A stretch of 64,000 nucleotides of DNA from Eledone cirrhosa (taxonomy: Eukaryota): the NCBI GenBank assembly GCA_964016885.1, contig OZ024760.1:992001-1056000 (forward strand), written 5' to 3'. How positions within the stretch are numbered: the first letter of the stretch is position 1; every line of letters starts with the position of its first letter. The notes beneath the pieces are model-generated. The model saw only the letters and a list, made by a program, of their open reading frames with translations. It did no database searches and was not told the DNA's origin. Shown here piece after piece: positions 56,231 through 63,599 of this stretch. Both the position numbers and the translations under genes were made by a program.

Positions 56231-56444
56231 TTATATTCATATATATAATGTATATATATATATATACATATATATATGTATTTATATTCATATATATGCA
56301 TATTCATATATTAATATATGTATATTCATATAAATGTATGTATATTCATATATGTCTATATATATTCATATATATGTTTATTCATATACATATGTATGTT
56401 TATGTATATCTATCTATATATATATATATATATAGATAGATATA

Positions 56445-56997
56445 CAAAATTAAGATAAATCAAAATGAATTTAATCTAAATCAAAATTATGGGTGTCATG
56501 CCAGAAAGACATGCGCCATATCACCCGCAAAATAAGCTCTAAGATTCTAACGAGGAGGTCCGAGCATTTTATAATAACTAGAAATTGATTAACATATAAA
56601 TAAACATGAATAATCAAAAGAGATAATTGTTACAAGTGTGTAAGCACACATAGCTAGGTAGGTAACTAAATAAAGTTGACCAGAACTTCAAAAATAGATA
56701 CCTTATAATATGATTAATCTTCCCTGTATATATTCCATTAAAGAAATATATTTCACCAATTAATCGAATGGTAAACCATGGAGGCCGGTACTTGGATTTT
56801 CAACAAGGAAGAAGTCCAGCGATCTATGTTTACACTTCAAGTTCAAATCAGCGACTGGCCAGCAACACGTGCCGTATCTACTAGAAATACACATCATACC
56901 AGCTTCGTCACAGTGGCGTGGATAGCGTTATCGACAACTAGAAACAGCAGTCAAGTCCTTTCAACAGAGTTAGCTCTACAATTAAGGAGCCGTATTT
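56445..56997 (+). other. Distant member (C) of the structured non-coding family
   Basis: GCTC-TAA-GATTC..GAGC, TGGATAGCGTTATCGACA and GCAGTCAA in the family order; TA flanks. Confidence 0.55.
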
Positions 56998-57011
56998 ATA
57001 TATCTATATAT

Positions 57012-58423
57012 ATATATTAGAAAGATCGAGTATCGAAAAATCGGCGCACGAGTTAACGAAAAACGAAATCCGATATGAGCGGCAGAGGGCTCAATAATTC
57101 AGATGAATCAGAGCTATAACTATCGTTAAAATACCGTCACATATAGAACAAGTCTACAATCAACCATACGATTTAAAATCGATAAAGGAAGATTCGGGCC
57201 AAACAGATAAAAAATATCAAAAAAACAATACGTCAATAATTTAAATGAATGTAAAATCATACCCGGACCCACTAGAAAGGTGTTAAATCTAGCTTCATGG
57301 GTTTCTGTAAATCCTTAGACAGTACTCTATCAGCTCACATATAAATATAAAAGCCTACTAGAATAAGTGGAATGGAGTTTACGTTGTCAACGAGTTTTAT
57401 CCTGGCGGCAAAGGAGTCAACTAGCGGTGAAAAACGCACATGGCATTAGACAAGGGAGATGACCCCTATATCCGCGAAAATAATTCGAGTGAATGTGGAA
57501 ATACACATATCGAATTAGAGTGCTCAATAGACATGTTAAAATAAAACAAAAGCTATTCATCACTCAATAGAATCGACAAAATATGAGCAATAAAATTAAC
57601 TGGTGGATAGCTATGTCCAGAGCTAAATATATTAGAAAGATCGAGTATCGAAAAATCGGCGCACGAGTTAACGAAAAACGAAATCCGATATGAGCGGCAG
57701 AGGGCTCAATAATTCAGATGAATCAGAGCTATAACTATCGTTAAAATACCGTCACATATAGAACAAGTCTACAATCAACCATACGATTTAAAATCGATAA
57801 AGGAAGATTCGGGCCAAACAGATAAAAAATATCAAAAAAACAATACGTCAATAATTTAAATGAATGTAAAATCATACCCGGACCCACTAGAAAGGTGTTA
57901 AATCTAGCTTCATGGGTTTCTGTAAATCCTTAGACAGTACTCTATCAGCTCACATATAAATATAAAAGCCTACTAGAATAAGTGGAATGGAGTTTACGTT
58001 GTCAACGAGTTTTATCCTGGCGGCAAAGGAGTCAACTAGCGGTGAAAAACGCACATGGCATTAGACAAGGGAGATGACCCCTATATCCGCGAAAATAATT
58101 CGAGTGAATGTGGAAATACACATATCGAATTAGAGTGCTCAATAGACATGTTAAAATAAAACAAAAGCTATTCATCACTCAATAGAATCGACAAAATATG
58201 AGCAATAAAATTAACTGGTGGATAGCTATGTCCAGAGCTAAATATATTAGAAAGATCGAGTATCGAAAAATCGGCGCACGAGTTAACGAAAAACGAAATC
58301 CGATATGAGCGGCAGAGGGCTCAATAATTCAGATGAATCAGAGCTATAACTATCGTTAAAATACCGTCACATATAGAACAAGTCTACAATCAACCATACG
58401 ATTTAAAATCGATAAAGGAAGAT
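57012..58423 (+). repeat. 2.3 head-to-tail copies of a 615-bp non-coding structured unit (member D)
   Basis: AAAGATCGAG at 57021, 57636 and 58251; copies identical by eye; (TA)n on both sides. Confidence 0.95.
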
Positions 58424-58510
58424 ATATCTATATATATGTATATATATATGTATATATATCTATATGTATATATATCTATATATATGTATATATATCTATA
58501 TATATGTATA

Positions 58511-58560
<50 letters not shown>

Positions 58561-58561
58561 T

Positions 58562-63599
<5,038 letters not shown>

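Follow-up and report, generated by a model that had tools for sequence, protein, structure and literature searches.

Fixed-start arrays of a 615-bp non-coding family in Eledone cirrhosa suggest repeated copying of single RNA templates by a Penelope-type enzyme

Metazoan non-LTR retrozymes are non-coding tandem units that measure some hundreds of bp (170-400 nt in PMC7229834, 51-972 bp in 10.64898/2026.07.22.740005), low in GC and dispersed as multimers in genomes that also carry Penelope-like elements (PLEs). Their RNA circles have been shown, but rolling-circle copying of these circles and integration by PLE enzymes are so far a proposal in these two papers, the open text of which gives it without evidence from fixed-start, one-template insertions. 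How PLEs themselves form partial tandems and retain introns is an open question. As described in the open text of PMC11167929 and PMC3846280 (the latter discussing intron retention), autonomous PLEs form pLTRs or partial tandems and a "tail", with a fixed internal start, an AT-rich target, a minor second start, 5' truncation, fold-back inversion and intron-like sequence retained after retrotransposition. The anole PLE initiates at a fixed internal position, with two start sites, on a linear template (PMC11167929), and in D. virilis Penelope the intron end adjoins a hammerhead (PMC4209133). Chlamydomonas MRC1 forms multicopy head-to-tail insertions in microsatellite targets and resembles an autonomous family at its 3' end, and most Chlamys elements lack hammerheads, according to the main text of PMC8557442. 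Finally, Roll-Seq, a laboratory method, yields in vitro concatemers in which an error in every repeat is attributed to the template and an error in one repeat to the reverse transcriptase (RT); sites misread in only some passes are not treated in its main text (PMC11331410).

Here we describe a family with the design of the retrozymes listed above (non-coding tandem unit, low GC, dispersed multimers, co-occurring PLEs) but with a unit of 615 nt. A search of the literature, mostly of open main texts, returned no account of this family or of one-template evidence from PLE-type insertions. The starting point was a 64,000-bp stretch of E. cirrhosa DNA (the window; contig OZ024760.1, positions 992,001 to 1,056,000), in which an insertion at 57012..58423 consists of 2.30 head-to-tail copies of the unit, with the minus strand as the putative RNA strand. 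Unit 1 (57012..57626) and unit 2 (57627..58241) have the same sequence and meet at a seamless junction without (TA)n between them, and a partial unit 3 of 182 bp (58242..58423) has the variable end. On the putative minus-strand RNA, 57012 would be the fixed 3' end, on the priming side, and 58423 the truncated 5' end. In a lag comparison, 57012-57808 matches itself at lag 615 over 797 consecutive bases with zero mismatches, and lags 614 and 616 give no matching run inside the array. The original observation of an exact 615-bp period and copies without differences is upheld by this run, as is an end in mid-unit by the array length (1,412 bp, i.e. two units plus 182 bp, or 2.296 units).

It had also been claimed that (TA)n lies on both sides, which is right for the far side, where a degenerate (TA)n target extends over 58424..58565, but not for the priming side. 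There, the target is short and AT-rich (56996..57011), an AT run (TATATATCTATAT) that closes a unit of another repeat family. Within this target, ATATCTATAT has a second occurrence beyond the right end of the array, which may represent a target duplication. The longest stop-to-stop frame within the unit is 62 aa, and an Rfam search of the unit gave zero matches. We rejected a protein-coding unit or a derivative of a PLE ORF, having found no meaningful ORF or tblastn match; the absence of an ORF sets the unit apart from autonomous PLEs.

In a search of the 3.0-Gb genome with the unit, 25 of 398 candidates were scored. All 25 are tandem arrays, spread over many contigs, and almost all of them differ from the window unit by no more than a few bases. 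Exact patterns for the array start and for the internal unit junction identified at least 742 insertions and at least 1,632 junctions, respectively (controls 0 in both cases), so that about 1 Mb of the genome consists of the element, and a pattern excluding the young allele gave 246 additional matches. The longest completed array has 26.6 units (16,361 bp). The window locus thus belongs to a set of at least 742 young insertions and is not the isolated event that had been proposed. Of 20 loci fetched from the 246 additional matches, 19 represent older sister lineages of the same design, with an identity of 68-85% and a period between 609 and 631 bp. Dispersal in hundreds of short arrays that have a single fixed end and private haplotypes does not fit a classical satellite, for which a few large arrays, arbitrary ends and cross-locus homogenization would be expected. 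It is scarcely credible that an assembly or polishing artefact inflated or homogenized the arrays: for the 10-16 kb arrays the number of units comes solely from the assembly, but flanks differ between arrays, which are found on many contigs with differing ends and private variants, the older lineages share the design, and the window array is only 1.4 kb long. Elsewhere, at least half of the element words were present in 8 sequencing runs; among 4 runs examined in detail, X10 and X12 gave real pieces at low depth and X18 only noise, so that the element is at most a candidate resident of those genomes. As to expression, none of the runs listed with element words was an RNA run, and the one run guessed to be RNA gave a 144-nt contig at a depth of 2.2 plus AT-rich noise, which speaks neither for nor against expression.

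A circular template had been expected to give permuted start points, whereas the start turned out to be fixed and only the far end varies. In 24 of the 25 arrays scored, the first unit opens at position 1, preceded by an AT run or (TA)n; in the remaining one it opens at about position 138, next to unreadable sequence. An independent list, compiled from internal junctions in the first 120 Mb of C1, shows the same start in 17 of its 18 arrays (41 further starts sampled on C1 had been picked by the start pattern and were excluded from this test). Exact starts genome-wide number 742 at position 1 and 12 at position 110, with none at the unit's other AT-rich site, near position 330. The fixed priming site comprises 13 nt (57012..57024, minus strand), and the minor second start lies in a strongly conserved block (57109..57135, minus strand). 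Position 110, at which one of the 12 exact starts was inspected, is also the outer end of the sole inverted piece seen in the examined arrays, a fold-back inversion (L039) of the kind found in PLE "tails".

The non-integer copy numbers that had been foreseen are borne out by far ends scattered round the unit. We mapped 66 of them to positions 19 to 585 (Kolmogorov-Smirnov test against uniform, p = 0.13), in a set in which two divergent ends were mapped too low and one is cut by an unreadable stretch, and from which the longest array, open at that stage, was omitted. An AT run lies to the left of all 66 arrays, most of which were picked by that feature, and (TA)n to the right of 40; the targets are microsatellites or AT-rich, and about a third of the far ends carry non-TA sequence. 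Target-site duplications (5 of 65, with 4.5 expected by chance) were not above control. A fixed start with scattered far ends is the geometry of target-primed reverse transcription (TPRT) and 5' truncation of a minus-strand RNA. Older lineages have target-like bases at the opening of the first unit, for example TATATAAG, as opposed to AATACAAG at internal junctions, a difference that fits priming by nicked (TA)n paired with a short AUAU. A fixed 3' end, variable 5' truncation and head-to-tail tandems are the marks of non-autonomous PLEs, and the element fits among those such as MRC1, from which it differs in its arrays of up to 26.6 near-identical units, in a shared sequence of only 13 nt and in a candidate partner with a C-terminal endonuclease (Neptune type). 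It resembles autonomous PLEs in all of the insertion features recounted above. The in vitro model in the main text of PMC11167929 has a linear multi-copy mRNA as template and a start without homology to the target. The 615-bp element differs in starting at an AUAU able to pair with (TA)n and in an array pattern that speaks for a monomeric template.

We then compared units within and between arrays. The 39 arrays with at least two full units fall into 21 haplotypes: one is found in 17 arrays, which are uninformative on bottlenecks, two are found in 2 arrays each, and 18 are unique, two of these being majority calls on mosaic arrays. Variation inside these 39 arrays amounts to 75 events over 183,631 bases and is absent from two of them, which have 16 and 18 full units. 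Private variants fill whole arrays, a pattern of the kind by which Roll-Seq separates errors of the template from those of the RT (PMC11331410): relative to the family majority, T>A at unit position 210 is present in both full units of the window (57221 and 57836, plus strand), two variants occur in all 26 units of one array, and two others in all 11 units of another.

These array-wide variants bear on the reading that long linear transcripts of arrays are copied by internally initiated TPRT, with later growth and homogenization by unequal crossing-over as in satellites. Internal initiation on uncleaved linear RNA has been shown in vitro and proposed for the anole PLE (main text of PMC11167929), local expansion is the model in the open text of 10.64898/2026.07.22.740005, and adjacent-unit variants do occur in older arrays. 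However, copying of a linear multimer can only shorten arrays and cannot spread one new mutation through an array, so it does not account for the many haplotypes that fill their own long arrays (26, 11, 11, 9 and 7 units). Moreover, length is greatest in the youngest arrays (Spearman -0.64, p = 5e-6, n = 41), the opposite of growth with age, and no spliced copy is found among 1,632 junctions. We consider this reading very unlikely.

Three young arrays contain sites that were misread repeatedly. At position 368, T is present in passes 1-19 and T>A in 6 of the final 8 of 27 passes; at position 309, C>A appears in 5 of 13 passes (5, 9, 10, 12 and 13); and position 386 reads T, G, A, A across passes. 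About 0.1 same-site pairs would be expected by chance. At all three sites the minus-strand base is a purine and the main substitute is A, the substitute typical of damaged or abasic template positions. A fourth recurrent site, within an A run, was discarded as slippage. Together, the array-wide haplotypes and recurrent misreads point to repeated copying of a single template, although the misread signature of these three arrays could have arisen by unequal exchange after insertion; in two older arrays (L072 and L080) the recurrences lie in adjacent units and resemble such exchange. Of the proposed single integration copied repeatedly round one template, the one-template pattern is supported for each array, and the isolation of the event is not. 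In addition, T>C at position 374 (A>G on the RNA strand) fills five arrays (L031, L078, L085, L106 and L107) on different backgrounds, once together with 210A, which may reflect either between-template recombination, recurrent mutation or A-to-I editing of the RNA.

We infer that the template was a covalently closed RNA. A linear 615-nt monomer of the same element, copied by the same enzyme with the RT jumping at each pass from the molecule's 5' end back to its 3' end, would explain the fixed start, the array-wide haplotypes and the recurrent misreads equally well and make ligation unnecessary; end-to-end jumping is known from the RTs of non-LTR elements and group II introns. Such jumping is nonetheless unlikely, in view of the far ends and junctions: the 66 ends show no pile-up, with none at the donor-like site (position 251), one at 254, by a GUC, and a single end at 253 that is cut by an unreadable stretch, and no site among 282 full units accumulates junction indels.

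The minus strand gives a better fold than its shuffles do (z = -3.1, versus -1.0 for the plus strand; 30 shuffles) and contains a predicted three-way RNA fold (57249..57340, minus strand) with a closing helix, a bulged-A hairpin and a second hairpin. Over 23 copies, 98.2% of cells are paired in this fold, a value reached by none of 500 shuffles and compared with 30-47% in slid controls; the model was drawn from the same 23 sequences on which pairing was scored. Both sides covary at 2 pairs (14 cells), a count of pairs also seen in 144 of the 500 shuffles, and RNAalifold agrees on most helices. These features bear on a small DNA circle, either an extrachromosomal circle or a Helitron-like one, replicated by rolling circle and inserted at nicked (TA)n. 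From such a circle one-template arrays would likewise be expected, and A opposite a damaged purine is a familiar polymerase habit, DNA polymerases typically inserting A at abasic sites. However, the conserved fold depends on G-U pairs of one strand, the splice-like signals described below lie on that same strand, the 3' end is common to an RT element, and no lineage has a Helitron-type TC start or a conserved flank outside the array, making a DNA circle highly improbable. An array derived from a Helitron or Helentron was rejected for want of the TC start and conserved outer ends that define these elements.

The usual circle-making route is missing, as the unit lacks a canonical ribozyme. A hammerhead descriptor matched none of 20 units, recovering one of two positive controls (the minimal hammerhead of the PLE copy L149). 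CUGA, GAAA and GUC do follow one another as in a hammerhead, but with CUGAYAG at the core, a helix I of a single pair and a helix II that is not conserved. Compared by eye with consensus structures, the hammerhead, HDV-like, pistol and hairpin ribozymes each miss a core feature in at least one lineage; the HDV-like P2 helix was dropped because it is broken in L174 and L179. As neither a canonical nor a minimal type I hammerhead was found, and another conserved fold and splice-like signals are present instead, the 615-bp element is not classed as a non-LTR retrozyme. Independently of the fold, three short motifs (TATTTTAAC, ATAGCT and TATTGAGC, minus strand) are present twice per unit, at positions 98-124 and 77-92 versus about 505-545; their order differs between occurrences, they are kept in all lineages, and they are candidate RT-binding or promoter elements.

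The splice-like signals, all on the minus strand, comprise a branch-site-like CTGAY (57329..57333; 25 of 27 copies), which is also the CUGA of the degenerate hammerhead-like arrangement, an acceptor-like YAG (57305..57307; 27 of 27) and a donor-like GT with an invariant +5 G (57258..57262; GTATGA in the window). Between acceptor-like and donor-like sites lies an exon-like hairpin of 42 nt (57263..57304), which measures 42-43 nt in all 27 copies. GT and +5 G are likewise present in 27 of 27 copies, with +3 and +4 varying (GTGAGT 14, GTATGA 10, GTTTGC 2, GTCTGC 1) and a pyrimidine at +3 in 3 donors; the region has no pyrimidine tract, and further AGs lie between the signals. Neither exon-exon junctions of spliced copies (zero, none among 1,632 junctions) nor lariat-derived copies (6 pattern matches versus 2 in the control, the best match being at chance level) were detected. 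Ordinary or back-splicing circles would measure 42, about 545 or 657 nt and not 615, and first-step cleavage at successive donors would, by our reasoning, give exactly 615 nt. Spliceosomal cleavage that stops at the first step is known from fission-yeast telomerase RNA.

In order to find a possible partner enzyme, we sampled the 10,596 candidate GIY-YIG sequences of the genome at 14 loci chosen for long frames and at the 30 top matches. The long frames examined encode an RT, then a CxxC linker, then the endonuclease, which is the Neptune layout in the open text of PMC8557442; Naiad was rejected as the partner, because the RT precedes the endonuclease in all GIY-YIG ORFs examined. One Neptune-type copy, L149 (G000:C1:145867500-145877400), carries two pLTRs at a distance of about 4.98 kb. 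The 13 nt of the fixed end of the young 615-bp family are also present at the 3' end of L149 and at its internal pLTR junction, at the same functional place in both elements, about half of these 13 nt being an AT run. The L149-type 3' end has 6,936 exact occurrences in the genome. As the 3' end of L149 equals its pLTR junction sequence, L149 would itself be a 1.x-mer started at an internal AUAU. Beyond the 13 nt, comparison of the unit with 53 fetched loci, of which 44 are GIY-YIG loci, revealed no similarity. Older 615-bp lineages differ from the 13 nt at the priming site, and six sampled PLE copies are about 98% alike, i.e. older than the youngest 615-bp arrays.

The pLTRs of L149 are about 1.5 kb long and contain internal repeats rich in AT. 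Some 190 nt before its 3' end, L149 also has a minimal U3-A8 type hammerhead, which overlaps a donor-like GTAAAG. In a second PLE family (L152, L153, L156 and L160), a minimal hammerhead-like motif was recognized by eye about 400 nt after the ORF, where the descriptor missed it, and L161 has another tandem, with a period of about 490-510 bp, downstream of its ORF. A further locus, L058, was considered and rejected as a parent element: it holds just 55 bp of the 615-bp element, as a stub, followed by a rearranged, unrelated LINE-like fragment (L058:500-1200) that was possibly captured during one insertion.

On this basis, the element is probably a non-autonomous, Penelope-dependent one with a retrozyme-like life cycle, in which a circular RNA is copied by rolling-circle TPRT from a fixed internal site with borrowed machinery, the RT/GIY-YIG protein of a Neptune-type PLE. 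Arrays would be transcribed on the minus strand, and the transcripts cut into 615-nt monomers and closed into circles. The monomers may come from an atypical self-cleaving motif at the GUC in the conserved fold, which we suggest tentatively, or, slightly less likely, from the first spliceosomal cleavage step at the conserved donor, with debranching and ligation afterwards; that they arise in some other way we hold as tentatively as the first. The endonuclease would then nick (TA)n, and the DNA 3' end would pair with a short AUAU at one internal RNA site; the start is fixed, and the first bases, which appear to derive from the target, suggest this pairing. The RT would circle the same template up to 26 times, as the array pattern implies, and stop anywhere, after which the far end would be joined mostly at TA, at times with inversion or captured sequence. 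Arrays would probably shrink with age through recombination between units.

The 615-bp family supplies genome-scale evidence that separates the models, namely a fixed start, one template per array and misreads recurring from a given pass onward, and offers a substrate of 615 nt, a candidate for the enzyme and specific sites to mutate, so that the question of PLE tandems becomes directly testable. It suggests an RT able to run for 16 kb with few errors and to target (TA)n, and a conserved RNA fold without an Rfam counterpart. It also points to an unexplained mode of monomer formation. A hammerhead-free class of circular-RNA retroelements, with monomers cut by the spliceosomal first step alone or by a new self-cleaving fold and then ligated, and with splice signals masked by the fold once the circle is formed, appears unlikely. 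If such a class existed, each of its insertions would naturally document one RT run, of up to 16 kb, and show in which pass the template suffered damage, and the same mechanism would explain pLTRs and intron retention in autonomous PLEs.

The surroundings of the array contain other repeats. Immediately before its target, 56431-56995 is a single unit from another non-coding family. This family, with 2,738 candidates that are 93-97% alike and a period of about 566 or 545, has the same design, with a start after (TA)n, tandems, a variable end and inverted pieces mostly from one site; the hammerhead descriptor gave zero matches on it. On the far side, 58566-59057 (minus strand) holds a LINE-type ORF fragment ending in a (CAT)n tail, presumably an RTE element, a 120-aa piece of which had zero Pfam matches. 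The window as a whole is very rich in microsatellites and minisatellites (196 TRF rows).
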